Of a stretch of DNA of 64,000 nt, positions 2,131 to 32,030 are shown piece after piece. The notes below the pieces were generated by a model that worked only from the letters and a program-made list of their open reading frames with translations, ran no database searches and had not been told where the DNA came from. Made by a program: the position numbers and the translations under genes. Source of the stretch: an uncultured Fidelibacterota bacterium (GTDB taxonomy: Bacteria > Fidelibacterota > Marinisomatia > Marinisomatales > Marinisomataceae). Within the stretch, counting starts at the first letter, position 1, and each line of letters opens with the position of its first letter. The stretch spans positions 62,320-126,319 of the forward strand of contig CACHCR010000001.1 in the NCBI GenBank assembly GCA_902578385.1. The letters run 5' to 3'.

Positions 2131-2137
2131 GTGAAAC
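2124..2137. repeat. 14-bp perfect palindrome GTTTCACGTGAAAC, copy 2 (spans the mnmE stop / mnmG GTG start junction)
   Basis: Read directly from the sequence. The mnmG GTG start (2130..2128) is the centre of the palindrome. The mnmE stop TAG is at 2137..2139. Confidence 0.6.
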
Positions 2138-3432
2138 TACTTTCCTACACAAAAAGAAGAGAAAACGGCATCTAAAACGTCATCCTTCGTTGTCTTTGAG
2201 GTTATATTATCTAAAAAGGATATTGCTCTGTTTAGGTCTTCTACGACAAGTTCTAAAGAGTTTTTTTCACTTAACAAAGCACAGGCACTTTTTAGCTGAT
2301 CTGCACAAGAACTAACCGCAAAGCACTGCCTCTTTGTTGTTAAAAGCACATTTTCGGTTATATTTTTATTTATTAATGACTTATATATTAGAGTTTTTAA
2401 CTCAGCTATATTTTTTCCGGTTTTTGCTGAAATACAAATGTCATATTTTTTGTTTTTATTGGGGTTTTTAACATCAATTTTATTAAAAACCTGCAGACTG
2501 TTTTTATTTTGACTGTTTTGATTGTTGTGGTTTAATAAAATTACCAAATCAGCATCCCTAGACTCTTCAACAGATCGAGCTACACCAAGCTTTTCTACCA
2601 CATCTACCGACCTGCGCAAGCCGGCGGTGTCTTTTAATAAAACAGGAAGACCGCCTATATAAATATTTTTTTCTATTACGTCTCTAGTTGTGCCCTCAAT
2701 ATCTGTAACTATTGATTGGTCTTTGTTTATTAGGGCATTAAAGAGGGTCGACTTTCCCGCATTTGGCGGACCAACAATAACAACAGAAGCGCCGTCTTGA
2801 AACATTCTGGATTCGTTAAAAGACTCTAATAAAGATGCCAGGGTTAACACCGTTTTTGTGAGAACGTTTAAAGAATTTTTAATAAGGTTTGGCTGAAGCT
2901 CGTCTTCTGAAATGTCCAAGTTGAACTCAAGGTTTGCAACCACCGAAATCAAGCTTTTTTTACACACACCTATTTCCTTTGAAAGGCCCCCCTTAAGGTT
3001 TTTAGCTCCAGCTTTTACACCAGCAATAGACTTTGAGTGAATAATAGAAGAAACGGCCTCTGCCTCCGAAAGATCCATTTTATCATTAAGGTACGACCTT
3101 TTTGTAAATTCGCCAGGCTCTGCCAGGCTTGCCCCTGCCGCAAGAGATAAATCAATAATTTTTGAAACAATAACAGGATTTCCGTGACATGAAATTTCAA
3201 CCATATTTTCACCCGTGTAAGAATTAGGCGCAAGGTACGTTGTTATAACAGCTTCATCAAAGACAACATCGTCTTTGTCAACGAGCAAATGAACGCCGGA
3301 GCCCACAGATTTTTTATGTAGATTGGCGCCCCTGATAAACGAGGACACATTTTTTAAAGCTCCCCTTCCAGAAACCCTAACAACAGCAATTCCGCTTATT
3401 CCTGGTGGGGTTGAACAGGCAACTATTGGCAA
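2137..3432 (-). CDS. mnmE: tRNA modification GTPase MnmE (TrmE)
   Basis: 431 aa. G1 motif GPPNAGKSTLFNAL, G3 motif DTAGLR, C-terminal FCVGK (C-x-G-K tail typical of MnmE). Confidence 0.95.
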   Translation of the reverse strand: MPIVACSTPPGISGIAVVRVSGRGALKNVSSFIRGANLHKKSVGSGVHLLVDKDDVVFDEAVITTYLAPNSYTGENMVEISCHGNPVIVSKIIDLSLAAGASLAEPGEFTKRSYLNDKMDLSEAEAVSSIIHSKSIAGVKAGAKNLKGGLSKEIGVCKKSLISVVANLEFNLDISEDELQPNLIKNSLNVLTKTVLTLASLLESFNESRMFQDGASVVIVGPPNAGKSTLFNALINKDQSIVTDIEGTTRDVIEKNIYIGGLPVLLKDTAGLRRSVDVVEKLGVARSVEESRDADLVILLNHNNQNSQNKNSLQVFNKIDVKNPNKNKKYDICISAKTGKNIAELKTLIYKSLINKNITENVLLTTKRQCFAVSSCADQLKSACALLSEKNSLELVVEDLNRAISFLDNITSKTTKDDVLDAVFSSFCVGK

Positions 3433-3447
3433 AACTTACGTCCTTTT

Positions 3448-5100: not shown

Positions 5101-5101
5101 T

Positions 5102-5242
5102 TTATGAAGAAACGGTAAGACGTTTACGACCCTTTTTCATGCGGGAAGACAAAACCTTTTTTCCACCAACGGTCGACTTTCTTTTCATAAAACCGTGCTT
5201 GTTTTTCCTTTTTCTGTTGCTAGGCTGATACGTTCTTTTCAT
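5102..5242 (-). CDS. rpmH: 50S ribosomal protein L34
   Basis: Not in the ORF track (46 aa). Hand translation of the minus strand gives [46 protein letters not shown], the classic L34 sequence. Stop TAA at 5104..5102, one nt from the yidC ATG (5100). Confidence 0.9.
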
Positions 5243-5258
5243 AATAATGTATTGCCGA

Positions 5259-5286
5259 AATATAGTCCAATTAAACTATTTGTAAA
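5259..5286 (-). promoter_or_regulatory. Candidate sigma70-type promoter for rpmH (-35 TTTACA, 16-nt spacer, -10 TATATT on minus strand)
   Basis: The minus strand reads TTTACA aatagtttaattggac TATATT, about 17 nt upstream of the rpmH ATG. Consensus match only; no experimental support. Confidence 0.3.
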
Positions 5287-5383
5287 ACAAATAAAACCAC
5301 ACACAAAAACCAAAAAAGTCTATGCAAGAACAAAAAAAGAGCGTAAAGTAGTGGAATATGAACATAAAAATATGTTAATAACG

Positions 5384-5392
5384 TGTGGATAA
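5384..5392 (+). promoter_or_regulatory. Perfect DnaA box (TGTGGATAA = complement of TTATCCACA), 3 nt upstream of the dnaA ATG
   Basis: Exact 9-mer read from the sequence. It lies in the AT-rich 153-bp rpmH-dnaA divergent spacer. Confidence 0.6.
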
Positions 5393-5395
5393 CTT

Positions 5396-6736
5396 ATGAA
5401 CTATAAAGAAATTTGGAAAAAAACAGAGGAAGACCTTAAAACAAGCCTACCTGCGCACGCTTATGAGGCCTGGATAGAAACCCTTTCTCCCGTTGGCGTT
5501 ACAAACCAGATATTTATACTAGAAGCGCCCAACCAGTTTGCCTATGACTGGATTATAAACAACTACCACGATATAATTTTATCTTCTTTGAGGGTGGTGG
5601 AAAAAGATCTTGAGCTTAAAATTTCTATTGCTCCCCAATCAGAACAAAACATTTCATCTACAGAGCTTGACCACGAAGAGCCCACAAAACAAAGCAATGC
5701 AGGAAAAAGAAGCAACATTAACCCAGCAAACATTTTTTCTGCTTTTATAGAGGGACCAAACAATGTTTTTGCAAAAAATGCAGCACACAAGGTTGCAAAC
5801 ACCCCCGGATCTTCTGACTTTAACCCGCTTATTATATATGGCGGTGTGGGTTTAGGAAAAACCCACCTTTTACACTCAATTGCAAACGAGCTTATAGGCT
5901 CCAAAAAACAACTTAATGTTGTTTTGGCCTCTTCAGAAAAATTTACAAACGACTTTATTGCCAGCATCCAAGAAAACAAAACACTAGACTTTTCAAAAGT
6001 TTATAGAAAAGCTGATGTCCTGTTAATTGACGATATTCAGTTTTTTCAAGGCAAAGAACAAACACAAGAACAGTTTTTTCACACCTTCAACGAGCTTTAT
6101 ACAAGCGGCAAACAAATAGTTATGACAGCAGACAGGTATCCCGGTGAAATGGTTGGTCTTCAAGACAGGCTTTTGTCAAGGTTTGAGTCTGGTCTCCACG
6201 CAGATATACAGCCACCCGACTTTGAAACCCGGGTTGCAATTTTATCAACAAAGGCAAAACAAAACAACGTCAAAATTGAAGGAAGACACCTTGAAAAAAT
6301 TGCATCACACGTCCGAACAAACATTAGAGACCTTGAGAGCTGTGTAACAAAAATATTTGCACACGCCACCCTTTCGGGGGACAAAATTAATGAGGCGCTG
6401 GTTGAGTCTATAATAAGAGAAAGGCTTGGTGATCAGGGTTACGGACAGGTCAACATGCAAGATGTTGTAAGCGGTGTTTGTGGAATATTTTCTGTTTCTC
6501 AAGAAGAGATGGTAGGCCAGTCAAGAAGAAAAAACATTGCAGAAGCAAGGCAAGTTGCAGCATACATGGCTCGAGAAGTTTTAGACATGCCGCTGAGCGA
6601 AATAGGCGTACACCTAGGAGGAAGAGATCACACAACAATTATGCACGCACACAAAAAGGTCTCAGAACTATTAAAAAAAGACGATAAATTTAAAAGAAGA
6701 GTAGATATAATTTATAACGAGCTAAATCTTAGCTAA
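5396..6736 (+). CDS. dnaA: Chromosomal replication initiator DnaA
   Basis: 446 aa. Walker A GGVGLGKTHLL, Walker B/sensor region LLIDDIQFFQGKEQTQEQFFHTFN, C-terminal DNA-binding helix region GGRDHTTIMHAHKKV. Confidence 0.95.
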   Translation: MNYKEIWKKTEEDLKTSLPAHAYEAWIETLSPVGVTNQIFILEAPNQFAYDWIINNYHDIILSSLRVVEKDLELKISIAPQSEQNISSTELDHEEPTKQSNAGKRSNINPANIFSAFIEGPNNVFAKNAAHKVANTPGSSDFNPLIIYGGVGLGKTHLLHSIANELIGSKKQLNVVLASSEKFTNDFIASIQENKTLDFSKVYRKADVLLIDDIQFFQGKEQTQEQFFHTFNELYTSGKQIVMTADRYPGEMVGLQDRLLSRFESGLHADIQPPDFETRVAILSTKAKQNNVKIEGRHLEKIASHVRTNIRDLESCVTKIFAHATLSGDKINEALVESIIRERLGDQGYGQVNMQDVVSGVCGIFSVSQEEMVGQSRRKNIAEARQVAAYMAREVLDMPLSEIGVHLGGRDHTTIMHAHKKVSELLKKDDKFKRRVDIIYNELNLS

Positions 6737-6746
6737 AGGAAGAAAG

Positions 6747-7190
6747 ATGGCAAAAGGAACAGTAAACAAAGTAACACTTATAGGAAGGCTTGGTCAAGAC
6801 CCCGAAATAAGGTTTACAGGAGATGGAGCGGCGGTTGCTAGTTTTAGCGTAGCCACCAACGAATCTTGGAAATCAAAAGACGGAGAGACACAAGAAAGAA
6901 CTGAGTGGACAAAGGTCACGGTGTTTGGTTCTACTGCAGAAAAATATGTACAGCCATATGTCAAAAAGGGAACGTTAGTTTATATAGAAGGTTCTTTAAA
7001 AACTGACAAATGGCAAGACAAAGAAGGTAACGACAGATATTCAACCGGAGTTGTGGCAAACAATTACGGAGGGGTACAAATACTGGGTGGAGGAGAAGGC
7101 GCCTTAGATTCTTCTTCTGGTATGAACCAAGAGCCTGTAAAAAAAGAAAATCTAGATCAAACAGTAGAAGACGACGACCTACCTTTTTAA
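6747..7190 (+). CDS. ssb: Single-stranded DNA-binding protein
   Basis: 147 aa. OB-fold N-terminus NKVTLIGRLGQDPEIRFT, a Gly-rich linker, and the acidic tip DDDLPF at the C-terminus. Confidence 0.95.
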   Translation: MAKGTVNKVTLIGRLGQDPEIRFTGDGAAVASFSVATNESWKSKDGETQERTEWTKVTVFGSTAEKYVQPYVKKGTLVYIEGSLKTDKWQDKEGNDRYSTGVVANNYGGVQILGGGEGALDSSSGMNQEPVKKENLDQTVEDDDLPF

Positions 7191-9167: not shown

Positions 9168-10700
9168 CTAGTGTTTAAAAACCCTAAACCCTGTAAAGGC
9201 CATAGCAATTTTATTTTTATTACAAGACTCTATCACCTCAACATCTCTAATAGATCCGCCCGGCTGAACAATTGCTGCAATTTTATGTCGAGCCATAGCC
9301 TCTATTGAATCTTTAAAGGGAAAAAACGCGTCAGATGCCACCACACACCCTTTTGGTATTTTTGTTTTTTCAAAAGCAATTTTTGTGGCATCAACCCTAC
9401 TTGTTTGTCCGCCAGAAATGCTAATAATTTTGTTGTTTTTAGCCACAACAATAGCATTAGACTTTGTGTGTTTAACAACCTTCCAAGCAAATAAGGCAGT
9501 TGAAATTTGGTTTGGAGTCAATTTTTTCTTTGTTGGAACAACAAGCTGGTTTTTAAGAAGCTTCGAATCGTCACGCTCCTGACCCAGGCTACCACCACCA
9601 ATCGTTTTGATTGAAAAACCCGCAGAGGAGTAGTCTTTTAGGCTCAATACGCGCAAGTTTTTTTTCTTTGAAAATATTTTTAGCGAACCGGCGTCAAAAG
9701 AAGGAGCAACTATAATTTCAAAAAAGACCTTGTTTATTTTTTTTGCAAGACCAACAGTACATTTTTTATTTAATGCAACCACTCCACCAAAAGCCGAAAG
9801 ACTGTCGACAGCAAGGGCTCTAGAGAAAGCCTCAGTAATGTTTTTTCCTACACCAATACCGCACGGCGAGTTATGTTTAATAATAACGCAAGCGGGAGAC
9901 TTTTTAAATTCTGATAAACACTGCAAAGCTGCGTCGCCATCTAGGTAGTTGTTGTAAGAAAGATCCTTGCCTTGAATTTGTTTGGCCTGAGGAATTCCAG
10001 AAGAAAAGCCCGTATCCGCTTTAACCACAAAAGCCTCCTGGTGCGGGTTTTCTCCGTAGCGCAAAGAAATATGTTCATCACCCTTTTCAGATAGCTCATC
10101 AAAAATTGTTTGATCATATTCTGCACAATGACCAAAAGCTTTTTTAGAAAGCTTAAACCTTTTTTTCTCTGAAACACCGCCCAAAGAAAGATCTTTAGAA
10201 AAACTAGAATAGTCTTTAGGGCTTACAACAACACTAACCCATTTAAAGTTTTTAGCAGCAGCACGAATCATTGTTGGCCCACCGATATCAATGTTTTCTA
10301 TCTTGTCATCTAGAGAAGACCCCGGTGTTTTTGCGACCCTTGAAAAGGGATAAAGGTTGCAAACAACTAAATCAATCCAGCAAACACCATGCTCTTCGGC
10401 CTCTTGTTTGTCTTTATCTCTTTGGCCTAAAATGCCACCAGAAATTAAAGGGTTTAGGGTTTTTACTCTTCCGCCAAAAATTTCTGGAAACTTGGTTATG
10501 GTGGATATTTTTTTAACACCTATTCCACCTTTTTTGAGAGCTTTTGCAGTTCCTCCGGTGGCAACAATTTGAACCCCAAATTTTTTTAAAGACCTTGCAA
10601 AAGGTAGTAGCCCCTTTTTGTCAGAAACAGAAATTAAGGCAGTTTTTGGAATTATTTTGTTACCCATCCGCACCAGGAAGTTCTGGACCTTTTTTATCAA
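9168..10700 (-). CDS. purH: Bifunctional AICAR transformylase / IMP cyclohydrolase PurH
   Basis: MGS-like N-terminus ALISVSDKKGL...GGTAKAL and an AICARFT domain. C-terminus is FTGFRVFKH. The real start is probably the internal Met at 10667 (MGNKIIPKTALISVSDKKG). Confidence 0.93.
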   Translation of the reverse strand: MIKKVQNFLVRMGNKIIPKTALISVSDKKGLLPFARSLKKFGVQIVATGGTAKALKKGGIGVKKISTITKFPEIFGGRVKTLNPLISGGILGQRDKDKQEAEEHGVCWIDLVVCNLYPFSRVAKTPGSSLDDKIENIDIGGPTMIRAAAKNFKWVSVVVSPKDYSSFSKDLSLGGVSEKKRFKLSKKAFGHCAEYDQTIFDELSEKGDEHISLRYGENPHQEAFVVKADTGFSSGIPQAKQIQGKDLSYNNYLDGDAALQCLSEFKKSPACVIIKHNSPCGIGVGKNITEAFSRALAVDSLSAFGGVVALNKKCTVGLAKKINKVFFEIIVAPSFDAGSLKIFSKKKNLRVLSLKDYSSAGFSIKTIGGGSLGQERDDSKLLKNQLVVPTKKKLTPNQISTALFAWKVVKHTKSNAIVVAKNNKIISISGGQTSRVDATKIAFEKTKIPKGCVVASDAFFPFKDSIEAMARHKIAAIVQPGGSIRDVEVIESCNKNKIAMAFTGFRVFKH

Positions 10701-11058
10701 TCAGCTTGTCTCTGTATGCAAGAGCAACTAGCGCAACCGCCAAAAGTGCAACAGAGGCTGAAAGATACAACGAATCAATTCCTGTGATCTCTTCAAAAGA
10801 AATGTGTCTTGCAAGCGCAAACATTCCAATATAAAGCGGATAACGAACAGGTATTTTCCCGGTTGAAAAAAAGATGTTTACCATCTGCATAATTTCAAGA
10901 TAAATAAATAACATCAAGACGTTTTGCACCTTAAGGCTGCCGCTGATGAAAACACTATTTATTTCCTCAAAACAAAGAAACATAACCATCCCAAGTATTA
11001 TTAAATGCAACACTCTTTCGATAAGAGTTATTCCGCTAAAAAACATTTTAGTATTCAT
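10660..11058 (-). CDS. PsiE-family (phosphate-starvation-inducible E-like) inner-membrane protein
   Basis: 132 aa, 4 TM. The segment LFIYLEIMQMVNIFFSTGKIPVRYPLYIGMFALARHISF closely parallels E. coli PsiE [39 protein letters not shown] (recalled from memory). It overlaps both neighbours (purN stop, purH start). Confidence 0.6.
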   Translation of the reverse strand: MNTKMFFSGITLIERVLHLIILGMVMFLCFEEINSVFISGSLKVQNVLMLFIYLEIMQMVNIFFSTGKIPVRYPLYIGMFALARHISFEEITGIDSLYLSASVALLAVALVALAYRDKLIDKKGPELPGADG

Positions 11059-23006: not shown

Positions 23007-24248
23007 GTGAGTTTTTTATACCAAAACAATACTTTAAAAATTTTTTTAATTTTTTTCTTATTTGTGCTACAGGGGTGTGCTGTTGCGGGGTCAGTCCTTG
23101 TGCCCCTAGACTCTATTGAGCCTCCAAGAGGAAAATATGATATAGGTACACAGGTATATTTTTGGACCGACCAATCGCGAGGTGAAGTATATACAACAGA
23201 TCCCTCAGACTTTAGAGAGCTTATGGTGCAGGTTTGGTACCCAGCTAAGGGCGGTGCAGGTTATCAAAGCGCACCGCATGTTACTTTCCCAAAAAAAGCA
23301 ATCTCGAGCATAGCAAGAACGGCAGGGCTTCCTGCAAATTTTGGTAAGCATGGAACACAGCTTATATCAAGCAGTGTATATGGCCTTACACCAATACAAA
23401 ACGAAAAATTTCCTTTAATCCTTTTTTCGCACGGGGACGGAGGGCTCTTAAATCAAAACACATCACAAGTTGAAGAACTGGTAAGCAACGGTTATGTTGT
23501 AATTGCTTGCAATCACACATATAATGCAAGCATTACGTTTGATAAAAACGGAAAAGAAATATTATATAAACAAAATGTTAGTTGGAACGAGCAGGCCCAA
23601 TACCACAAAAAATATTATACAAACCTATTAATTAATTATAGATACAAAGACCTACTTTTTTTGTTAAACACCTTGAAACAAGAAAATTTTAATGATGGAA
23701 CAAACAACCCATTTAAAAACATTATAAACTTTGACAACGTTGGAGCAATGGGCCACTCTATGGGTGGAGGAACCGCTTACACAGCAATGCTTAAAGACAA
23801 AAACATTAAAGCGGGTGTCGCATTAGACGGCTGGTTTTTTGGACTGCTTGATAGCGAGGCATCAAAAGACACTAAAAAACCATTTTTACACATTGGTCAG
23901 GAACAGTTTCTTGATGATGAAATTGAGGGAGACATAAACGACTCAAACGACGGGAAAAAGAACTTTACGATTTATAACACCATGTTAAAAAACAACAAAG
24001 AAAGTTATGGAGTATATATTAAAAACAGTCTTCACTATTCATATACAGATCTCAAGTTAATTTATAGATCAGGCTCTCCGCTGTCTATTCCCTTAAACAG
24101 CCTTGGTAGAGTTGATAAACAAATTGTCGATGCCGTGATGGATAAAACAGTGTTAGATTTTTTTAATTATGCCCTTAAAAACCAGGACATAAATATCAAC
24201 GATTACAACACCTATAATGGCCAGGTAATTTACAACAAATACCCATAA
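23007..24248 (+). CDS. Secreted lipoprotein, alpha/beta hydrolase of the PAF-acetylhydrolase/lipase-like type
   Basis: 413 aa. Lipobox FVLQGC, PLILFSHGDGG...NGYVVIACNHT, and nucleophile elbow GHSMGG. GTG start. Confidence 0.6.
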   Translation: MSFLYQNNTLKIFLIFFLFVLQGCAVAGSVLVPLDSIEPPRGKYDIGTQVYFWTDQSRGEVYTTDPSDFRELMVQVWYPAKGGAGYQSAPHVTFPKKAISSIARTAGLPANFGKHGTQLISSSVYGLTPIQNEKFPLILFSHGDGGLLNQNTSQVEELVSNGYVVIACNHTYNASITFDKNGKEILYKQNVSWNEQAQYHKKYYTNLLINYRYKDLLFLLNTLKQENFNDGTNNPFKNIINFDNVGAMGHSMGGGTAYTAMLKDKNIKAGVALDGWFFGLLDSEASKDTKKPFLHIGQEQFLDDEIEGDINDSNDGKKNFTIYNTMLKNNKESYGVYIKNSLHYSYTDLKLIYRSGSPLSIPLNSLGRVDKQIVDAVMDKTVLDFFNYALKNQDININDYNTYNGQVIYNKYP

Positions 24249-24353
24249 ACAAATTCTCTGACGACAAAAAACATTTTTATCGTCGATAGGCAAAAAAAAA
24301 TTAGCAAAAAAGTATTGACATCTACGGAAACAATCGTCAATTTAGGTGGAATT

Positions 24354-24386
24354 AGCTTCCGGAAGGGCACGAACCCTTTGGAAGCT
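24354..24386 (+). promoter_or_regulatory. GC-rich stem-loop in the 5' leader of the TBDR operon (AGCTTCCGGAAGGG-CACGAA-CCCTTTGGAAGCT)
   Basis: About 13 pairs (including 2 G-U and one bulged A), read directly. It stands out in an otherwise AT-rich 250-bp spacer. No U-tract follows, so it is not a classical terminator. Confidence 0.4.
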
Positions 24387-24497
24387 GTGTATATATAGTG
24401 AGCTTTTACACATATATATAATAGGGTAAGAAATAAAAATGAAAAAAAACAATAAACAAAAATTTGTATATATAAATACTCATTTGGAGGTAGAATA

Positions 24498-27400
24498 ATG
24501 AGAAAACTACGTATGTTAATTGCGCTGGTTGTCCTACCAACAATGATGTTTGCACAATCAACTACTGCTAAGTTAGCGGGGGTTGTTGCAGATGCTGATG
24601 GTAATCCGTTGGTTGGTGCGAACGTTGTGGTTGAAGGATCAAACCTTGGTGCAGCTACCGATGAATTAGGTAGATACTATATTCTTGACGTTCCTGTAGG
24701 TACTTATGACCTAAGAGCCGAGTATATTGGTTACACAACTGTAATTGAATCAGGAGTAAAAACATCAGTTGGTTTTACAACATCTGTTGATTTTAACCTT
24801 GACGTAGCAGCTGTGGCCGGTCAGGCAGTTACAGTAACAAGAGAAAGACCATTAATTAATCCAAATGCCACAAATACAACTCGTGTTGTTGATAAAGAGT
24901 TGATTGATGCATTTGCTGTTAGAGGGGTAAGCAATATTGTAAACCTACAAACAGGTGTTGTTAATGGATATTTCCGTGGAAGTAGAAGTGGAGACAGTCG
25001 TTACTATGTTGACGGTGTTCCAGTTAAAGATGTTTATGGCGGTGGAAACCTTCTAAACGGTAACTCACAAGCAGCCTTGCAAGAGATCTCAGTTCAAACT
25101 GGTGGTTTCTCTGCGGAATACGGTGGTGCTAATGGTGGTATCGTAAACATCACTACTAAAACAGGTGGATCTGAATGGACATCTAGAGTTGGATTTGAAT
25201 CTTCTTTAGGATCAGACCCAGACACAGATCCTGATAAGCTTTATACAGATGGATACCAAAATGTAAACTTTGATTTTGGTGGTCCAATAAGCGACAACAT
25301 TAAAGTATACTTATCTGTCGAAAGTAAAGAAAAAGGCGGAGACGTATCATACAGTTATTATCCAATGATGGATGCTATGCCGATGCAAGACGCTCCACCA
25401 GCTGATTACTACAGCGATGGAACAGATGGATTGTCATACGGAACGGATGAAAATGGCAATAAGATTCATCACATTGAAACTGTTATTAGAGATAATCAGA
25501 CTGACCCAGCTTTATTAGCTTCAGGGGTAGCTGCTTATGATACAACCTATGTTGTCTACAGTAATTATAGACGTATGTATGGTCAACAACCACAAGATGA
25601 TAACGAAAGAGTTACTATCAATGGTAATATGACCATGGACTTTGGTCCTTTACGTTTAAAACTTGGTACTCAGGCATATGACTATGAAGGACATAGTTAT
25701 AGTTGGAGTAGAGTATATGGTGGAACAGACGGTTCATTTATTAATGAATCAGATTTCGCTATGGGATACTTAAATGCTAGATACACAATTAGTCCATTAT
25801 CATATATTAAGGCTTCATTGTCACAACAGACATATGAAACTACTACAGGTAATGAAAACTACTTAAATGATATCGAAGCATATGGTAGAAGAACAAAGGC
25901 GTACGGATCTCCTAATTATTACAAAAGAGATGGTACAGGCTTTAACCCACTATCACCGGATGAATTCTTTGGTGTAGTTGGTTTTGGTTCTCAAACAACA
26001 AGCTTTAATACTAGAAAAACAACAACGAACACTCTTAGCTTTGACTACACAAACCAAATTGGTTACAACGAGTTCAAGTTAGGTGCTTCTATTGATAATC
26101 ATGAAATCACTAGATACGGCTTAAGTGCTTCAGGGGTTGCAAGAGCAATTTCTCAGGTTGATGCAAACTATGATGGTGTTGCAACAAACGAAGAAATTAT
26201 TGCAGCAGGAAGTGACCCAGCTGACTGGAGATTTATTAACTATAGATCGTTGTATGTTACAAATCTAGGATACAATATTTATGGTGATGAGTGGAACGGA
26301 ACATATAATCAAGACGATCATATGTTAGCTCCAGCAGAGCCAACACAATCACGTTTCTACATTCAAGATAAGCTTGAATTTAAAGATGTAGTTGTTCAGT
26401 TAGGTTTATCATTCGAAACTATCGATACAGGTGCTATGGCTCCTGACTCAGATAATGACGGTTATGGTGATTCTGACGGTTTCAACAATCTATACTTTAA
26501 CAGACAACGTGTAGATAGAAACGGTGATGGAAACGGTAACTATGTTTGGAAAAAAGTTGAAAAAGAAACCGCTACTCACCCAAGAATAGGTGTGTCATTC
26601 CCAGTGTCTGATCGTACAGTATTCCGTGCGAATTATGGTACACACTGGCAATCAGTACCTATGTCTTATTTATATCTTTCAGATTCACAGCTTTCAGCTG
26701 ACATTTTAGCTGGTAACGCTACTGCATCTGAGAATCCTGCACTTAAGCCTGAAAGATCTACTCAGTATGAAATTGGTATTGAGCAGCGTATTGGAGCATT
26801 TGCTTCATTAAAGGTTGAAGGGTTCTATAAAGAAAGTAAAGACTATTTAACGCTTGCTAATCGTACAGAGGCATTCACCAACACAGGTGGTGCTGATACT
26901 CAGCAAAACTGGGCACAATACCAAAATGGTGACGTTATGGTATCTCAAGGTTTGACAACAAACTTTGAAATGCGCAGAACAAGAGGTTTGTACGCACAAG
27001 CTAACTATACTTACTCAGAAGCTAGAGGTACTGGTTCATACGGTGGACAGAACTTCTACATTACTTGGATTGGTACAGATGATGGTTATCCAAAAGCGAT
27101 GAACTTATTAGACTATGACCAAACACACACAGCAAACGTAATTCTTGACTGGAGATCACCTGATGCTACAGGCGCTCTAGCAAACACAGGATTTAATGCT
27201 GTTATGAGTTTTGGTAGTGGTACTCGCTATACCCCATCTCAAATCTATAGTACAGTTTTTGAGAATCGCTGGGAGTTCCCAGAAGGACCAGTAAACTCAG
27301 GTACATTACCTGCATTTTCAAACTTAGATCTACGTGTTGATAGAGCTATCAGCCTTGGCGGTTTAACTGCTAATGCATATATAGCTGTGTTTAACGCATT

Positions 27401-27614
27401 AGATAATGAGCAAGTAAATGATGTTTATCATGGTACTGGTAACGTAGCCGAAGATGGCTGGGTTGCTACTGAAAGTGGGCAACAATGGCTTGCCAATAGA
27501 TTATCTGTCAATCCTGATGTCGATGCAGCTGCTATGTACGAGGACAACCTAGCGTTTCCTGGTAGATGGAACAGACCACGTCAAGTAAGGGTTGGTTTAA
27601 ACATTAGTTTTTAA
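24498..27614 (+). CDS. TonB-dependent receptor-like outer-membrane protein (CarboxypepD_reg + plug + large beta-barrel; SusC/RagA-like architecture)
   Basis: 1038 aa. Signal peptide MRKLRMLIALVVLPTMMFA/QS. Carboxypeptidase-regulatory-like domain (KLAGVVADADGNPLVGANVVVEG...GTYDLRAEYIGY). Plug-like FRGSRSGDSRYYVDGVPV. Long barrel ending RVGLNISF with terminal Phe. SD GGAGG upstream. Confidence 0.85.
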   Translation: MRKLRMLIALVVLPTMMFAQSTTAKLAGVVADADGNPLVGANVVVEGSNLGAATDELGRYYILDVPVGTYDLRAEYIGYTTVIESGVKTSVGFTTSVDFNLDVAAVAGQAVTVTRERPLINPNATNTTRVVDKELIDAFAVRGVSNIVNLQTGVVNGYFRGSRSGDSRYYVDGVPVKDVYGGGNLLNGNSQAALQEISVQTGGFSAEYGGANGGIVNITTKTGGSEWTSRVGFESSLGSDPDTDPDKLYTDGYQNVNFDFGGPISDNIKVYLSVESKEKGGDVSYSYYPMMDAMPMQDAPPADYYSDGTDGLSYGTDENGNKIHHIETVIRDNQTDPALLASGVAAYDTTYVVYSNYRRMYGQQPQDDNERVTINGNMTMDFGPLRLKLGTQAYDYEGHSYSWSRVYGGTDGSFINESDFAMGYLNARYTISPLSYIKASLSQQTYETTTGNENYLNDIEAYGRRTKAYGSPNYYKRDGTGFNPLSPDEFFGVVGFGSQTTSFNTRKTTTNTLSFDYTNQIGYNEFKLGASIDNHEITRYGLSASGVARAISQVDANYDGVATNEEIIAAGSDPADWRFINYRSLYVTNLGYNIYGDEWNGTYNQDDHMLAPAEPTQSRFYIQDKLEFKDVVVQLGLSFETIDTGAMAPDSDNDGYGDSDGFNNLYFNRQRVDRNGDGNGNYVWKKVEKETATHPRIGVSFPVSDRTVFRANYGTHWQSVPMSYLYLSDSQLSADILAGNATASENPALKPERSTQYEIGIEQRIGAFASLKVEGFYKESKDYLTLANRTEAFTNTGGADTQQNWAQYQNGDVMVSQGLTTNFEMRRTRGLYAQANYTYSEARGTGSYGGQNFYITWIGTDDGYPKAMNLLDYDQTHTANVILDWRSPDATGALANTGFNAVMSFGSGTRYTPSQIYSTVFENRWEFPEGPVNSGTLPAFSNLDLRVDRAISLGGLTANAYIAVFNALDNEQVNDVYHGTGNVAEDGWVATESGQQWLANRLSVNPDVDAAAMYEDNLAFPGRWNRPRQVRVGLNISF

Positions 27615-27640
27615 TTAAATAAGAAGGTAAAGAGGTAGAT

Positions 27641-30600
27641 ATGAAAATCTTAAAGAATATTACCGTATTCACATTGGTGATGTTGCTATCAGTTTCTACT
27701 GTACTTGAAGCGAGGGACAAAAATGTCTCTAACTTTAGTAGCAGCACATCTAACTATGTGGATTCTGTCGGTACGTTCGATGGGAATAAGATCTATGCCG
27801 ATGTAGCCAACAACGGCCTCTTCCTGGATTACCACGTTTCTGGTGATTCAGCGTTAGAGTGGCCTAAGGGTACGGGTGTACACTCAATCTTCCAATCTGC
27901 ATTGTGGATGGGAGCGACAGTGAACGGATCTATTCGAACTATCGTTGGAGATTATACACAAGATATGGGTCCAGGCCCATGGGGCGGTGACCCGCTAGCT
28001 GCGGTTCACAGAATCTATAAAGTTGAGAAGAGTATGTTAGCTTCTCCTTTAGATTTTGCTGACTTCCAAGAATGGCCAGTTGATTTTGGTGCACCTTGGG
28101 TGGACGTTGATGGTGATGGAGTTTACTCTCCACTTCCAGGCGGTCCTGATCATCCTGAGTTTCTAGGAGACCAAGTGCTTTGGTTTGTTAGTAATGATGG
28201 TGATCCAGCGTATAAGCTAAATTTTGGTACATCTCCATTAAATGTAGAAATTCAAACAACTATGTTTGGATTTGATAGACCTGACGTTTTTGGTGACATG
28301 GTGTTTTTAAAACAGCTTGTTATTAATTATGGTTCAGATGACTTGGTAGATACATATATGGGACTATGGTCCGACCCTGACCTAGGGTATGCTGGTGACG
28401 ACTTTGTTGGTTGTGACGTAGATCTAGGTATGGGATATGTATGGAATGATGGGGCAGACTCACAGTATGGTACTTTAGATATTGGTACTCCTGCTGCTGG
28501 ATATGACTTCTTCCAAGGACCTATGGTTCCTTGTGAAGACGGTGATTCAGAAGCAGTATGTCCAGCTGAAGGTGCTAAGATGTTTGGTACTCGTCACCCA
28601 GGTATGAAAAACCTTAAAATGTCATCTTTCGCATTCTACATTAATGGTGATGCGACTTACACTGACCCTTCAGATGAAACTGAAGGATACTTTTACTTAC
28701 AAGGTTTAAGAAAAGATGGTAGTGCATATCCAGCTGAGATTGCAGGAGACCTATATGATCAGAAATTCTGTTTCTATGGAGATCCTAACGATGCAGCTGG
28801 TCACAGTACAGCGAACCCAGTTGATGGTAACTATGCAGCATCTGCTGACAGACGTTTCCTAATGAGTGTTGGTCCGTTTACTATGGCGGCTGGAGACTCA
28901 CAAGAAGTTGTGTTTGGTATTTTCCACGCAGCTGGTGGTGACGCTTTATCATCTGTGGCATATTTAAAAGAAGTTGATGCTCTTGCTCAAACAGCATATG
29001 ACATTGACTTTGCATTGCCAGATTCTCCACCTTCACCAAACGTAACAGCAAGTGCATTTGCAGACCAAATTATTTTGGTTTGGGATGATACTGCTGAAGA
29101 TTACGTAGCGACTAGTGAAGTTGATCTTGATGCAGCAGGTAACCCAACAAACTTTGTGTTTGAGGGATACAATGTGTATCAATATGAAACTGCATCTGGT
29201 GCTGGAGCGAAGAAAAGATTAGCAACTTACGATGTCGTAAATGGAGTTACTGAAATTTATGATACTGTATTTAATGCTGAGCTTGGAGAAAATATTAGTA
29301 TTAGAACGCAGTTTGGATCAGACAGCGGATTAGCACAATTTCACGCAATTAGTACTGATGGATTAAGTGGTAATTCAAAACTGATTACAAACAGAGCATA
29401 TTATTATGCTGTAACAGCATACGGTTATAATGCAGACGGTATTCCAAAAACATTGGAAAGTAGCCCTGTATATTTAACTGTAAGACCTGAAGTTCCAAAT
29501 ACAATGTCAGCAGGAGAAGCAACTGCTTCTGCCGGTGATGTTGTATCAGCAGCTCATGACGGTCCTTCACAGGGTTCTGTGGATATGATTGTTGTGGATC
29601 CATCACAATTAACCGGGGATGATTACTCAGTTACTTTTGACGATGCGATGCCTGATGGAACTGTTGCGGTAAACTGGACTCTGACTAACGTTACTGATGG
29701 TAATGTATTAGTTGCTAACAACCCTGTTGTTGGTGGTGTTAATACTGCTACCGGTTTAGAAGTTGGTCCGGGTGGAACTCCAGTTGTTGAAGGTTTCCAA
29801 GTACAGGTTAATGGTCCTCAAGAAGACCTATTATCTGTAAGTGAGTGGGACCACGGCTGGAAAGAAAATGGTGTATTAAGAGACCCTGCGGTTTCATATG
29901 TACCATGGGCTAGTTTAGGACGTACAGGTTATATTATTGAAAACAGAGCTGGTTTACACTATTCAGCTCCGTATAATCGTGACTTCGATAGATTTAACTA
30001 TTGGGAGTCAGACGATGTAGAGCTTGACTTTAGCACTCCATCACTTGGATGGGACTACATTTATGAGTGGGTAAACAGTTATGTTCCATTCTCAACATAC
30101 AGACATAATTTTGCTACTGGTCAAAAAGAGCAAATATATTCTGGATATTGGGACTATGACCGTAACCTTGACTATGAAGGTAGTTTTGCAAACGGTGACT
30201 GGGCTGGACCAATTTATGGTGCACCAGCATGGGAGCCTATTTATGCATTTGTAGGTCATATTGCTTCACCATATGATCCTGCTTTAGAAGCACAATACAT
30301 CGCAGATGATGATTTAATTACATCAGGAGGTTGTGGTTGGGCTTACGTTTGTGATAATTACACAACAAGTGGAGCAACAATTACATATCCATACATGACA
30401 GCGACATTATTCACTGATTATTTAGGGTCTAATGTGCTTCCTACTCAGGCTGGACACGCAGCATGGGGTAGTGGCTATTCAACAGCTAGTTCTGTTGTCT
30501 GGGAAATGAGTAAACCAAATTCTTCAGCTGATACATTTACCTTCTCAACAGCTGGCTTAGAAATGGTTTCAAATGATTATGATCCAGACAGAATTACTGT

Positions 30601-30904
30601 ATGGCCAAATCCATACTATGGATATAATCCTGAAGAAAGAGACGCTCTAGATAGAAGAGTTATGTTCAGTCACCTTCCAACAGAAGGTCCTGCAACAATT
30701 AGAATCTTCGCTCTAGACGGTACTCTAGTAAGAACTATTAAGCACAACGATGCAGGTTCACAGCATACATACTGGGATATGAAGAACAACTTCGAACTTC
30801 CAGTTGCTAGTGGAATGTACGTAGCACACGTAGAGACTAACAGAGGAGATAAAATCCTCAAGTTAGCTGTAATTCAACCAGAACAACGTCTCGACGTTTA
30901 CTAG
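27641..30904 (+). CDS. Large secreted/cell-surface protein with a T9SS type-A C-terminal sorting domain; function unknown
   Basis: 1087 aa. Signal peptide MKILKNITVFTLVMLLSVSTVLEA. The C-terminal ~90 aa fit the T9SS CTD pattern (ITVWPNPYYG...ATIRIFALDGTLVRTI...HTYWDMKNNFELPVASGMYVAHVET...KLAVIQ). An FN3-like segment lies at ~29020..29440 (PPSPNVTA..IILVWDD..FEGYNVYQYE..YYYAVTAYG). I found no HExxH, GxSxG-in-context or other catalytic signature. Confidence 0.75.
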   Translation: MKILKNITVFTLVMLLSVSTVLEARDKNVSNFSSSTSNYVDSVGTFDGNKIYADVANNGLFLDYHVSGDSALEWPKGTGVHSIFQSALWMGATVNGSIRTIVGDYTQDMGPGPWGGDPLAAVHRIYKVEKSMLASPLDFADFQEWPVDFGAPWVDVDGDGVYSPLPGGPDHPEFLGDQVLWFVSNDGDPAYKLNFGTSPLNVEIQTTMFGFDRPDVFGDMVFLKQLVINYGSDDLVDTYMGLWSDPDLGYAGDDFVGCDVDLGMGYVWNDGADSQYGTLDIGTPAAGYDFFQGPMVPCEDGDSEAVCPAEGAKMFGTRHPGMKNLKMSSFAFYINGDATYTDPSDETEGYFYLQGLRKDGSAYPAEIAGDLYDQKFCFYGDPNDAAGHSTANPVDGNYAASADRRFLMSVGPFTMAAGDSQEVVFGIFHAAGGDALSSVAYLKEVDALAQTAYDIDFALPDSPPSPNVTASAFADQIILVWDDTAEDYVATSEVDLDAAGNPTNFVFEGYNVYQYETASGAGAKKRLATYDVVNGVTEIYDTVFNAELGENISIRTQFGSDSGLAQFHAISTDGLSGNSKLITNRAYYYAVTAYGYNADGIPKTLESSPVYLTVRPEVPNTMSAGEATASAGDVVSAAHDGPSQGSVDMIVVDPSQLTGDDYSVTFDDAMPDGTVAVNWTLTNVTDGNVLVANNPVVGGVNTATGLEVGPGGTPVVEGFQVQVNGPQEDLLSVSEWDHGWKENGVLRDPAVSYVPWASLGRTGYIIENRAGLHYSAPYNRDFDRFNYWESDDVELDFSTPSLGWDYIYEWVNSYVPFSTYRHNFATGQKEQIYSGYWDYDRNLDYEGSFANGDWAGPIYGAPAWEPIYAFVGHIASPYDPALEAQYIADDDLITSGGCGWAYVCDNYTTSGATITYPYMTATLFTDYLGSNVLPTQAGHAAWGSGYSTASSVVWEMSKPNSSADTFTFSTAGLEMVSNDYDPDRITVWPNPYYGYNPEERDALDRRVMFSHLPTEGPATIRIFALDGTLVRTIKHNDAGSQHTYWDMKNNFELPVASGMYVAHVETNRGDKILKLAVIQPEQRLDVY

Positions 30905-30916
30905 GATAAGGAGAAT

Positions 30917-31972
30917 ATGAAAATGAAAAATACATTTAAAATCTTCCTTGGATGCGCAGTGTTAGTTTCAGCTTTAACCGCTGGTACAGTGAGATCACAA
31001 GGTACTGCTGGTGCCTCACAGCTTCTAATTCCAGTCGGTACTGAAACAGTCGCACTTAGCGGAACAAACGTTGGTACGGTAGCTGGAGTAGATGCATTAT
31101 TTACTAATGTAGCTGGTTTAGCTAGACACAACTCTGGGTTACAAGGAACAGTTTCAACCACCTCATACATTGCCGATATTGACGTAATGTATGCAGGAAT
31201 GGTTGTAGCAATGGGAGAAACAGGTACTTTTGGTATGACAATTAAATCTCTTGATTTCGGAGACATTCCAAAAACTACTGCTTTCGCACCTGAAGGTGAC
31301 GGACAGACATTCTCCCCAAGTTTCTTCACAGCAACCGCAGGATTTGCTAGAGCATTTTCTGATCGTGTTAATGTAGGTTTCGCAGGAAAATTAGTTTCCG
31401 AAACTATTGAAGAAACATCTGCTACAGGTATGGCATTGGATGTTGGAGTACAATATCGTTTTCCAAACCAACCATTAACATTTGGTGTAGCAATGAAAAA
31501 TGTTGGAAGTAGAATGCACTATGATGGTATTAACTTAGATCAGGACATGGTTCCTTCAGATTCTGAGTCGGGATCATCATCAGAGACATTTAGAATAATT
31601 GCTGATAACTTTGCGTTACCAACAAGTCTAGATCTTTCTGCAACTTACTCTTTATTAAACAATTTAGATGTAAGCGCAACTTTCACTAATCACTCATACC
31701 AGGCTAACACAATGGCTCTTGGAGCTAAATATGTGTTAGGTTCATCATGGTTTGGTGCAGCAACTACAATGACTATTGGGGATGAAGAAAAACCAACTGG
31801 TCTTTCAGATGCTGACTGGGATGAATGGAGTGGTACATTCTGGGGCCTATCAATGGGTGCTGGAGTTACTATTCCTGTAGGTGATTACATGATGCATGTT
31901 TCATACGCTATGAGAACTGCTAATGAGTACTTTGATGATCACAGTACTATGCAGGTCACATTTGATTTCTAA
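30917..31972 (+). CDS. PorV/PorQ-family outer-membrane beta-barrel protein
   Basis: 351 aa. Signal peptide, then GTAGASQLLIPVGTETVALSGTNVGTVAGVDALFTNVAGLA. This fits the PorV/UPF0164 N-terminal pattern (G-x-x-G-A-x-F-L-x-I-x-x-G-A-R-x-x-A-M-G-G-A...D-x-x-A-x-x-x-N-P-A-G-L-A, from memory). Alternating beta-strand pattern; ends in ...VTFDF. SD AAGGAG. Confidence 0.65.
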   Translation: MKMKNTFKIFLGCAVLVSALTAGTVRSQGTAGASQLLIPVGTETVALSGTNVGTVAGVDALFTNVAGLARHNSGLQGTVSTTSYIADIDVMYAGMVVAMGETGTFGMTIKSLDFGDIPKTTAFAPEGDGQTFSPSFFTATAGFARAFSDRVNVGFAGKLVSETIEETSATGMALDVGVQYRFPNQPLTFGVAMKNVGSRMHYDGINLDQDMVPSDSESGSSSETFRIIADNFALPTSLDLSATYSLLNNLDVSATFTNHSYQANTMALGAKYVLGSSWFGAATTMTIGDEEKPTGLSDADWDEWSGTFWGLSMGAGVTIPVGDYMMHVSYAMRTANEYFDDHSTMQVTFDF

Positions 31973-32006: not shown

Positions 32007-32030
32007 AAAGGGCTCAGAAATGAGCCCTTT
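32007..32030. terminator. Bidirectional intrinsic terminator between convergent PorV-like and M23 genes (AAAGGGCTCA-GAAA-TGAGCCCTTT)
   Basis: A 10-bp perfect stem with a GAAA loop, and the T-run continues as TTTTT (32028..32032). Read directly. Confidence 0.65.

Follow-up and report, generated by a model that had tools for sequence, protein, structure and literature searches.

In the attachment complex of P. gingivalis, the barrels PorQ and PorV each hold one surface protein, PorZ and PorU respectively, by its sorting domain (PMC12365241), which makes incomplete the statement in a first-pass annotation of the present DNA that dedicated adaptors are not described for PorV. The operon analysed here lies in a 64-kb stretch of SAR406/Marinimicrobia DNA (64,000 nt, hereafter the window) and resembles these pairs in that a 14-strand PorV/PorQ-family barrel (gene 3) is encoded with one surface protein carrying a type-A-like sorting domain (gene 2); of the equivalog models, PorQ gives gene 3 its highest score, and the nearest counterparts of the gene 2 domain are the sorting domains of PorZ and PorU. 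However, the passenger of gene 2 is unrelated to the PorZ propellers or the PorU sortase, its sorting domain, which would be retained, is followed by an extra aromatic tail, and here the genes share one operon with a TonB-dependent transporter (gene 1).

SusC-SusD and RagA-RagB are like the operon in having a large TonB-dependent barrel with a carboxypeptidase-regulatory-like domain encoded upstream of its surface partner, and in that both members are highly expressed and duplicated as pairs. Unlike them, gene 1 fails the SusC/RagA model (34 versus 368 bits), gene 2 is not a lipoprotein and is all-beta with a sorting domain, showing neither TPR-like helices nor the fold of SusD, and the anchor would come from a third gene. 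In the PorP/SprF shuttles of Flavobacterium johnsoniae, which serve type-B cargo, a cargo gene is likewise linked to a dedicated barrel that fixes its location, and the sorting domain would likewise hold both secretion and targeting signals (PMC12618676). The present barrel is instead of the PorV/PorQ family and the domain type-A-like, and known PorP/SprF cases come without a TonB-dependent transporter. Oar of Myxococcus xanthus and PorF (PG0534) of P. gingivalis are, like gene 1, TonB-dependent-receptor-like barrels, and Oar presumably shares the CarboxypepD_reg-type architecture of gene 1. Both have been linked to the secretion of proteins or to late steps of the T9SS, and not to classical nutrient import (PMC6434023, PMC5445135, PMC12704123); for neither is an operon described that joins it with a PorV-like barrel or a sorting-domain protein. 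Finally, the BAM complex of Bacteroidota (BamA-BamG-BamH) also has a FadL-like 14-strand barrel set against a larger barrel as a platform for surface proteins (PMC12578637). Its components belong to other families, its function is outer-membrane protein assembly, and its surface partners are lipoproteins.

In the dark and mid-depth ocean, SAR406/Marinimicrobia rank with the most abundant heterotrophs, and to our knowledge almost nothing is known about their uptake of organic matter. TonB-dependent transporters of Marinimicrobia are among their most transcribed genes in situ and are prominent in ocean metatranscriptomes and metaproteomes, in data that are not specific to gene 1 (PMC13096325, PMC5776962).

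Layout and expression of the locus

The features discussed below are, in window coordinates:

24315..24343, plus strand: predicted promoter, TTGACA (24315-24320), 17-nt spacer, CAATTT (24338-24343); from hexamer conservation
24354..24386, plus strand: 5'-proximal mRNA hairpin, AGCTTCCGGAAGGG-CACGAA-CCCTTTGGAAGCT; RNAalifold consensus stem
24498..27614, plus strand: gene 1, predicted TonB-dependent transporter, 1038 aa; from Pfam domains
27641..30592, plus strand: gene 2 passenger, residues 1-984; from an AF2 model and Pfam, profile and Foldseek searches
30593..30874, plus strand: gene 2 C-terminal sorting domain, residues 985-1078, a T9SS type-A-like beta-sandwich; from conservation, PF18962 and PDB profile matches
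30875..30904, plus strand: gene 2 C-terminal tail QPEQRLDVY, residues 1079-1087, plus stop codon; from the family alignment
30917..31972, plus strand: gene 3, 351-aa PorV/PorQ-family (FadL-like) outer-membrane barrel; from NF033709 and a PorV structure match
32007..32030, no single strand: bidirectional intrinsic terminator, AAAGGGCTCA-GAAA-TGAGCCCTTT; from a pattern scan and direct reading

The three genes (24498-27614, 1038 aa; 27641-30904, 1087 aa; 30917-31972, 351 aa) are co-directional on the plus strand, with gaps of 26 nt between genes 1 and 2 and 12 nt between genes 2 and 3, exactly as first annotated. Because the neighbouring genes are housekeeping genes and synteny is stable in all 24 Marinimicrobia loci, a mobile-element or island origin was ruled out; dnaA is located ∼18 kb away. 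Within the 64-kb window gene 3 is the sole PorV-family gene, no genes for SprA/Sov, PorKLMN or PorU were found, and none of the ∼43 genes scanned gave a SusD-like Pfam match. The module is seemingly single-copy in the streamlined SAR406 genomes sampled.

The intergenic region before gene 1 (24249-24497, 249 nt) holds a putative promoter preceded by an A-rich tract. Among 16 related Marinimicrobia loci both hexamers are invariant and their flanks variable. The hairpin starts ∼4 nt past the inferred transcription start, and 9 of its 21 predicted pairs are altered on both sides across the 16 loci (RNAalifold), so that compensatory changes are present; it is probably an mRNA-stabilising stem. With a promoter at 24315-24343, the transcribed leader would be ∼150 nt long rather than the 250 bp first described. 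Because no Rfam family was found in the window at the gathering score, the leader is not a known riboswitch.

All three genes have strong Shine-Dalgarno sites (GGAGGT, GAGGT and AAGGAG for genes 1, 2 and 3), as the first-pass annotation had noted, compared with a match of at least 5 nt in only ∼6 of 42 other window genes, and the Shine-Dalgarno region of the leader is invariant in the aligned related loci. Downstream, the terminator that had been noticed earlier has a 10-bp stem flanked by T-runs on both strands and is also used by a convergent M23 peptidase gene. Codon usage differs between the operon and the other genes for CGT (0.85 versus 0.37), GGT (0.58 versus 0.35), ACT (0.41 versus 0.29), CCC (0.00 versus 0.14) and AGG (0.03 versus 0.31). 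The bias first reported, towards GGT, GCT, ACT and GTT, is real though not in that exact form: GGT and ACT are raised, and GTT is not enriched relative to other genes. Taken together, promoter, 5' hairpin, Shine-Dalgarno sites, codon bias and the ∼18-kb distance to dnaA point to a strongly expressed operon.

The transporter, the surface protein and the barrel

The domain content of gene 1 marks it as a TonB-dependent transporter that also has a CarboxypepD_reg domain: a signal peptide is followed by the CarboxypepD_reg N-terminal domain (PF13620, 62 bits, above cut-off), a TonB-box-like segment AVTVTRERPLI, the plug (PF07715, 26.1 bits, gathering score 23.9), a large barrel (PF00593, TonB_dep_Rec, 72.6 bits, gathering score 27) and a C-terminal Phe (...GLNISF). 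Distant orthologues keep the C-terminal motif, and the TonB-box-like region is kept in them as xVxVxAERPLI. The protein had been given a SusC/RagA-like architecture, of which the CarboxypepD_reg domain, plug, barrel and terminal Phe are confirmed. Membership of the SusC/RagA family does not hold, as TIGR04056 gave 34.3 bits against a cut-off of 368.25, over the N-terminal residues 25-82 only (61 bits for an orthologue), and the PDB match to RagA covers only the N-terminal 213 residues (E 1.7e-4). Because gene 1 is not a SusC/RagA member, a 'SusD-less SusC' is the wrong frame for this operon.

Gene 2 encodes an all-beta protein of 1087 aa with a Sec signal peptide (residues 1-25), a conserved acidic beta-rich N-domain (∼41-460), an Fn3-like domain (∼466-620), an Ig-like domain (∼630-745) and a variable region (746-980). 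The AF2 model was made from a 62-sequence alignment reaching other phyla (pLDDT 86, pTM 0.73); an earlier one, built on 24 close homologues, had a pLDDT of 56 and could not be used. Across 29 diverse family members no Pfam domain was found in the first ∼730 residues, and sequence profiles against PDB gave a titin Fn3 match at profile positions 509-618 and no other match to the passenger. Foldseek against PDB returned only local beta-sandwich or Ig-array likeness at TM 0.1-0.2, with the N-domains of GH94 and GH116, complement proteins and S-layer proteins as partners; the top match was PorZ (E 2.5e-6), with a TM to 5m11 of ∼0.1. We do not take these similarities as a sign of a glycosidase or other enzyme; Pfam, PDB profiles and Foldseek gave no recognisable ligand-binding or enzymatic domain and did not place the protein in any characterised enzyme family. 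A lipoprotein was rejected as well, there being no Cys near the signal peptide, and Pfam gave no SusD-like match, in line with the first reading of a signal peptide without lipobox and nothing SusD-like. The family is very large, comprising thousands of 50%-identity clusters that have no annotated domain.

Conservation within gene 2 is highest in the sorting domain, at 91% mean pairwise identity compared with 57-82% for the other domains. Its own scores are below the cut-offs (TIGR04183, 16.9 versus 23; PF18962, 16.8 versus 27), and at the family level 14 of 17 sorting domains match PF18962 at E ≤ 0.1 (best 2.3e-7), relatives P0140 and P0166 being above the sorting-domain cut-off. The assignment of a T9SS type-A domain made from the sequence is supported for the family and sub-threshold for this protein. 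The best PDB sequence matches of the domain profile, which are weak, are the sorting domains of PorZ and PorU, and one gene 2 orthologue matched the PorZ model NF052228 over its C-terminal 93 positions only (34 bits versus 260), scoring higher there than on the generic sorting-domain model. Gene 2 is not PorZ itself, because NF052228 fits only the sorting domain and TM to 5m11 is ∼0.1.

Moreover, gene 2 lacks the usual ending of a type-A domain, a last beta-strand with basic and hydrophobic residues: a 9-residue tail follows. This tail, QPEQRLDVY, is 100% identical in 24 Marinimicrobia sequences, and '(P)EERLDx' with a final F, Y or W is found in 35 of 41 distant family members. Ordinary sorting-domain cargo in related loci has no such tail and ends in '...KKMMLLK'. 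With conservation peaking in the sorting domain and a tail that does not vary, the C-terminus is unlike what one would expect of a signal removed by cleavage and then lost.

An outward-acting receptor was also considered, in which gene 1, like Oar of Myxococcus, would export or assemble gene 2 and the barrel would receive it, giving a mini secretion and anchoring system and possibly a surface coat. Oar is needed to secrete the protease PopC (PMC6434023), the Oar-like barrel PF25183 is on record for distant gene 1 orthologues (loci L025, L027, L028 and L115), receptor and gene 2 form a tight pair in duplicated arrays, and gene 2 is Ig/Fn3-like with weak S-layer similarity (Foldseek for gene 2, Pfam for the distant relative P0121). 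However, PF25183 was not reported for gene 1 itself at E ≤ 0.01, a protein of 1087 aa is unlikely to pass through a plugged 22-strand barrel, and gene 2 bears a T9SS-type sorting domain in organisms that must have a general T9SS, to judge from the ordinary sorting-domain cargo encoded nearby. We consider this reading quite improbable.

Gene 3 is a PorV/PorQ-family protein as first proposed (NF033709, 116.2 bits versus a cut-off of 90), and its family profile matches F. johnsoniae PorV (6h3i_F, E 6.9e-18). It reached 41.4 bits of the 250 required on the PorV equivalog model NF033710 (orthologues 65-82) and 82.4 of 220 on the PorQ model NF033711 (orthologues 85-108); the orthologues always score higher on PorQ than on PorV. 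Having missed both cut-offs, gene 3 was accepted neither as PorV proper nor as PorQ proper. These equivalog models were presumably built mostly from Bacteroidota sequences, hence a sub-threshold score does not exclude orthology. One orthologue had a weak BamG match (32 bits), and a lipoprotein was discarded because the Cys of 'FLGC' is not conserved. As judged from these scores and its gene neighbours, gene 3 belongs to a distinct clade of the PorV/PorQ family that is linked to the module throughout the loci surveyed.

Conservation of the trio and its possible roles

All three proteins have orthologues in other phyla, at identities of 28–32% for gene 1, 31–39% for gene 2 and 32–36% for gene 3. 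The receptor/gene 2/gene 3 arrangement is present in 9 of 9 distant gene 2 homologue loci, which include Ignavibacteriae, Eisenbacteria, KSB1 and a second Marinimicrobia lineage. In a gene-3-centred metagenome scan, with a 3-sequence gene 3 alignment as query, a gene 2 homologue was directly upstream of the gene 3 homologue in all 56 distant loci, and a receptor preceded the gene 2 homologue in each of the 26 loci with room for it. The trio stays adjacent, with short gaps, in unrelated neighbourhoods of different phyla. Adjacency of receptor, sorting-domain protein and PorV-like barrel, whose loss in relatives would have counted against the first-pass proposal, is thus conserved in all loci examined, and this pattern indicates joint inheritance of the three genes in several phyla of the FCB group (Fibrobacterota-Chlorobiota-Bacteroidota). 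As none of the related loci examined breaks up the trio, we see in it what looks like a surface machine not described before; searches of the literature on Marinimicrobia, T9SS, PorV-like proteins, GWxTD and Fidelibacter gave no description of the module, which agrees with the earlier remark that the combination has not been characterised.

Contigs L054 and L067 each carry gene 3 twice, either copy accompanied by a separate receptor and surface protein, which argues for a dedicated barrel. In loci L032 and L033, duplicated receptor/gene 2 pairs share one barrel, thus receptor and surface protein look like the core and the barrel like an accessory. The dedication of the barrel proposed at first is supported by the separate trios and the constant linkage of the clade to the module.

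These observations bear on a simpler account, in which gene 3 is the general PorV and gene 2 an ordinary abundant T9SS cargo, cleaved and then lipid-anchored or released, so that the operon merely reflects shared high expression. Gene 3 is the sole PorV-family gene of the 64-kb window, its equivalog scores are compatible with orthology if the models are mainly Bacteroidota-based, as we assume, SAR406 genomes encode many sorting-domain proteins in need of a shuttle (PMC5596340), and PorV is reported to serve type-A domains in general (PMC12618676). However, a strict order with short gaps across phyla is unlikely to result from convenience of co-expression, the two gene 3 paralogues of some contigs each lie within their own trio, and the sorting domain and unique tail are the most conserved parts of gene 2, with co-resident ordinary cargo lacking the tail. 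This account is in our view distinctly unlikely, if less so than the outward receptor.

The trio might also be T9SS machinery itself, a non-Bacteroidota counterpart of PorF/PorZ/PorQ acting in late secretion and in the attachment of cargo to lipopolysaccharide, with gene 2 binding or delivering a surface glycolipid. The P. gingivalis T9SS has a predicted TonB-dependent receptor with a plug, PG0534/PorF (PMC5445135), whose partners are unknown, and porF, porQ and porZ mutants have a common partial phenotype (PMC12704123). The gene 2 sorting domain is closest to PorZ, also its top Foldseek match, gene 3 is nearer PorQ than PorV, and an apparently single copy in the SAR406 genomes sampled would suit machinery, as would the lipid A acyltransferase and heptosyltransferase genes after the module in 11–15 metagenome loci and LptD in locus L114. 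Nevertheless the PorZ model fits the sorting domain only, and the passenger is a beta-sandwich protein rather than two propellers. Moreover, several lineages carry tandem duplicates of the receptor/gene 2 pair that differ in their variable regions, which is unusual for core machinery, and for part of a machine such expression signals are very strong. We regard this reading as unlikely, although it is the most probable of the three alternatives.

The reading that we prefer, to which we give slightly less than an even chance, is that the barrel anchors the surface protein in the manner of PorQ-PorZ, beside the transporter, for substrate capture. Gene 2 would be exported by the T9SS and keep its sorting domain and aromatic tail, with no cleavage and no attachment to lipopolysaccharide, and through these parts the gene 3 barrel would hold it non-covalently at the surface, like PorQ-PorZ and PorV-PorU. 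More speculatively, the acidic N-domain on its Fn3/Ig-like stalk, tethered beside the transporter, could capture substrate and hand it to gene 1 for TonB-energised import, a role like that of SusD and other surface glycan-binding lipoproteins for SusC in Bacteroidota. If the operon were the main capture-and-import device, it would be a third way to give a TonB-dependent transporter a surface partner, besides SusD-type and Slam-dependent lipoproteins. It would also give a role to the unannotated gene 2 family, indicate that a type-A-like sorting domain can bear its own targeting signal for a PorV-family barrel reserved to it, and offer a link, open to testing, with the so far unexplained PorF, PorZ and PorQ of the Bacteroidota T9SS. 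A broader proposition, which we hold as doubtful, is that the FCB phyla outside Bacteroidota (Marinimicrobia, Ignavibacteriae, KSB1, Eisenbacteria, Zixibacteria and Kryptonia) share an ancient outer-membrane capture-and-import machine in which the substrate-binding partner of the transporter, rather than being a lipoprotein, is exported by the T9SS and permanently held in a dedicated PorQ-like barrel by its aromatic tail and uncleaved sorting domain; the machine would be the functional counterpart of SusCD and maybe the evolutionary source of PorF-PorZ-PorQ.

Gene neighbours of the module vary among phyla. A GWxTD protein gene is often found beside it in other phyla, and together with the lipid A acyltransferase and heptosyltransferase genes counted above this is a hint of an envelope-biogenesis rather than a nutrient role.

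Layout and expression signals of the operon

The three genes lie on the plus strand with gaps of 26 and 12 nt, as the first-pass annotation had placed them, and with their flanking elements are as follows.

24315-24343, plus strand: predicted promoter TTGACA-N17-CAATTT, preceded by an A-tract; invariant in the alignment of the spacer with 15 loci
24354-24386, plus strand: leader hairpin, with both-side changes in 9 of 21 predicted pairs in the same alignment
24498-27614, plus strand: gene 1, TonB-dependent transporter, 1038 aa
27641-30904, plus strand: gene 2, surface protein, 1087 aa
30917-31972, plus strand: gene 3, PorV/PorQ-family barrel, 351 aa
32007-32030: terminator, a GC-rich hairpin of 10 bp with a T-run on either strand; closes the operon and also serves a convergent M23 peptidase gene

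The 249-nt spacer 5′ of gene 1 was compared by alignment with 15 related loci. In this alignment the leader also holds an AT-rich palindrome and an A-rich spacer, and the ribosome-binding region before gene 1 is wholly invariant; no Rfam family matched the leader. Strong Shine-Dalgarno sequences were found where the annotation had reported them, with GGAGGT, GAGGT and AAGGAG before the starts of genes 1, 2 and 3, respectively, and only ∼6 of the 42 remaining window genes likewise match the anti-SD core over at least 5 nt. The terminator is bidirectional, as described. The claimed codon bias is present, since GGT (0.58 versus 0.35) and CGT (0.85 versus 0.37) are preferred relative to the other 40 window genes, and CCC (0 versus 0.14) and AGG (0.03 versus 0.31) are avoided; however, the enrichment in GTT that had been included in this claim was absent. 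The sequence observation of the first-pass annotation is confirmed, with small corrections needed. Compared with other window genes, the trio proteins are high in Gly, Ala, Thr and Asp and low in Lys and Ile.

Conservation of the trio

The trio is kept in 24 of 24 Marinimicrobia loci, but this says little because the whole neighbourhood is syntenic there. We therefore rely on more distant relatives. A look-up centred on gene 2 covered nine homologues (∼31–42% identity) from Ignavibacteriae, Ignavibacteriales, Eisenbacteria, KSB1, a second Marinimicrobia lineage and unnamed lineages, and the trio arrangement was present at all nine, in unrelated neighbourhoods. The order receptor, gene 2 and ∼340-aa barrel is complete at seven of them; in the other two (L032 and L033) the arrays are broken by the contig end, and the barrel follows one gene-2 copy while the receptor adjoins the other. 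Orthology to the trio of the window, for the first five loci, was at 28–32% (gene 1), 31–39% (gene 2) and 32–36% (gene 3) identity. Moreover, a distant gene-3 profile was scanned against metagenomes, yielding 80 loci spread over numerous JGI and ENA projects. A gene-2 homologue precedes gene 3 in every copy with >700 nt of upstream sequence (56/56), and a receptor lies upstream of gene 2 at all 26 complete loci with room. The adjacency in relatives on which the annotation had staked its proposal thus holds both at the gene-2 loci and at the gene-3 copies, and its central inference, that the genes form a functional triad whose PorV-family barrel is dedicated, withstands this check. This strict co-inheritance shows that the trio is a functional unit.

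Tandem duplicates of receptor and gene-2 pairs occur in several lineages (loci L025, L032, L033, L048, L050, L054 and L067). Two full trios are present in each of L054 and L067, and in L032 and L033 one barrel is common to two receptor and gene-2 pairs. From these arrays, the receptor and the surface protein look like a 1:1 core, and the barrel like a shareable accessory.

The three proteins and their possible roles

The gene 2 family is very large: 6,801 of the 50%-identity cluster representatives searched match with E <= 0.001, and 1,746 with E <= 1e-30. Gene 2 carries a Sec signal peptide and no lipobox, as noted in the first pass, and a Pfam scan of 29 diverse family members gave no domain over the first ∼730 residues. 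The AF2 model, for which 62 sequences from across phyla were aligned, is all-beta and confident (pLDDT 86, pTM 0.73), with the following predicted parts.

Residues ∼41-460: acidic N-domain, conserved, with motif WSDPDLGDAGDDFVGCD (AF2 model)
After the N-domain: Fn3-like domain (AF2 model and titin Fn3 match)
Residues ∼630-745, after the Fn3-like domain: Ig-like domain (AF2 model)
Residues 746-980, window 29876-30580: variable region (AF2 model)
Last domain: C-terminal beta-sandwich (AF2 model)

Foldseek against the PDB returned no enzyme fold, and similarities were low-TM and local only. The data suggest that gene 2 has an exposed middle part that is modular and may be diversifying. Evolution is fastest in residues 746-980 and also in 630-745 (mean identity 57–58% among close relatives, compared with 91% for the sorting domain), and in many family members the middle is swapped for unrelated segments; one relative, P0140, has an M12/M43 metallopeptidase and cadherin-like repeats inserted.

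The sorting domain is the most conserved part of gene 2, with a mean pairwise identity of 91% versus 57–82% elsewhere within Marinimicrobia, and 50% versus 27–44% for the rest across phyla. It had been called a T9SS type-A domain. On its own it scores 16.9 against a cut-off of 23 and is thus sub-threshold, but PF18962 is matched by 14 of 17 family sorting domains, with relatives scoring past the cut-off; by these profile scores it appears clearly type-A-like at the family level, as a specialised, tailed subtype. The 9-residue tail QPEQRLDVY that follows is invariant among Marinimicrobia, and 35 of 41 distant members have a ‘(P)EERLDx’ tail with final F, Y or W, whereas ordinary sorting-domain cargo in the same loci ends in ‘...KKMMLLK’ instead. 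Among solved structures, the sorting-domain profile lies closest to the corresponding domains of PorZ (E 0.007) and PorU (E 0.025), and in one orthologue the C-terminus of the PorZ model outscores the generic sorting-domain model. These matches are weak, yet they all point in one direction.

Gene 3 belongs to the PorV/PorQ family, as proposed (116 bits; cut-off 90), and a profile of the family matches PorV of F. johnsoniae (E 6.9e-18). It was rejected as PorV proper (equivalog 41 versus 250) and as PorQ proper (82 versus 220); the PorQ score exceeded the PorV score in every orthologue scored. Dedicated adaptors had been said not to be described for PorV. This needs correction: in the attachment complex PorQ anchors PorZ and PorV anchors PorU (PMC12365241), an established precedent for a barrel of this family dedicated to one sorting-domain protein, to which we liken genes 2 and 3. 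In the current literature PorV is described as the generic partner of type-A sorting domains, and dedicated shuttles as a feature of type-B cargo (PMC12618676); gene 3 could be a general PorV and gene 2 its ordinary cargo, a reading we consider quite unlikely. A stable anchor pair of genes 2 and 3 would fit better than a cleaved export signal: the sorting domain resembles those of PorZ and PorU and is exceptionally well conserved, the tail is private to the family, and the barrel leans towards PorQ. In such a pair the barrel would anchor gene 2 through the sorting domain and tail. In the Bacteroidota BAM, a FadL-like barrel is likewise a platform for surface proteins next to a larger barrel (PMC12578637).

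In gene 1 the CarboxypepD_reg, Plug and TonB_dep_Rec barrel domains each exceed the Pfam cut-off; the protein also contains a conserved segment resembling a TonB box and ends in Phe. The architecture described as SusC/RagA-like is present, but family membership is not (TIGR04056, 34 bits versus a cut-off of 368, with the match confined to the N-terminal domain). The Oar-like barrel signature PF25183 is present in several distant orthologues, and an outward, Oar-like role of the receptor (PMC6434023) has been weighed; we regard it as improbable. Because an intact TonB-dependent importer is always the first gene, the function is most simply read as capture by a surface protein tethered beside its transporter. 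Gene 2 may, as we tentatively propose, be held next to gene 1 in the capture-partner role that SusD and related lipoproteins have for SusC, and might there capture substrate for uptake.

A GWxTD-domain protein directly follows the trio at 24 of 45 loci with room, about half of the non-marine loci. In many non-marine relatives among L034-L113 it is ∼465 aa long (TIGR04514/PF20094) and starts 0–50 nt past the barrel (for example L034:2594-3988 and L028:11391-12794), often followed by genes for a lipid A acyltransferase, a GT9 heptosyltransferase, Sua5 and an M23 peptidase. GWxTD, lipid A acyltransferase and heptosyltransferase genes beside the trio were found neither in the window nor in the Marinimicrobia loci. 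The LPS-gene neighbourhood seen in other phyla fits a T9SS accessory module, a counterpart of PorF, PorZ and PorQ; P. gingivalis PorF is a TonB-receptor-like T9SS component whose mutant resembles those of porQ and porZ and which has no known partners (PMC5445135, PMC12704123). We consider such a module unlikely and retain the tethered capture protein as the working reading. Full-text literature searches found no description of the module, the gene-2 family or the GWxTD proteins. The parts are of known kinds; new are the way they are combined, how widely this combination occurs, and a sorting domain that carries a tail.

Host and genomic setting

Gene-2 homologues with 67–95% identity come from SAR406 genomes, both single-cell and metagenome-assembled, that carry the label Marinimicrobia, Neomarinimicrobiota or Fidelibacterota; one of these is a record of 969,550 bp with the label ‘chromosome: 1’. 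The locus also occurs on contigs in MAGs labelled Nitrosomonadales, Hyphomicrobiales and Cryomorphaceae (L012, L015 and L024), with receptors at 82–92% protein identity to that of the window, and these labels most likely reflect binning contamination.

The 64-kb window holds no further TonB-dependent receptor, sorting-domain protein or PorV-like gene, and the operon's neighbours are purine-biosynthesis and other housekeeping genes. As dnaA (5396-6736) lies with yidC, mnmE, mnmG and ssb at 241-7190, ∼18 kb separate it from the operon, which is presumably close to the replication origin; the cumulative GC skew has its minimum at ∼22–24 kb. Directly 5′ of the operon, in the same direction, 23007-24248 encodes a 413-aa alpha/beta hydrolase, which falls in the PAF acetylhydrolase family and also gives a weak PETase-like match. 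The hydrolase has the same place in most Marinimicrobia loci (50–78% identity) and not in other phyla, being moved in L009 and not detected in L010. A 97-nt tRNA-Leu(GAG) lies at 10906-11002 on the minus strand between purH and purN (ARAGORN), and because it overlaps the mechanical 132-aa ORF at 10660-11058, the latter is probably no gene. GC content drops sharply at the end of the operon (∼32000), from 0.37–0.42 over 2–32 kb to 0.29–0.33 over 32–64 kb.
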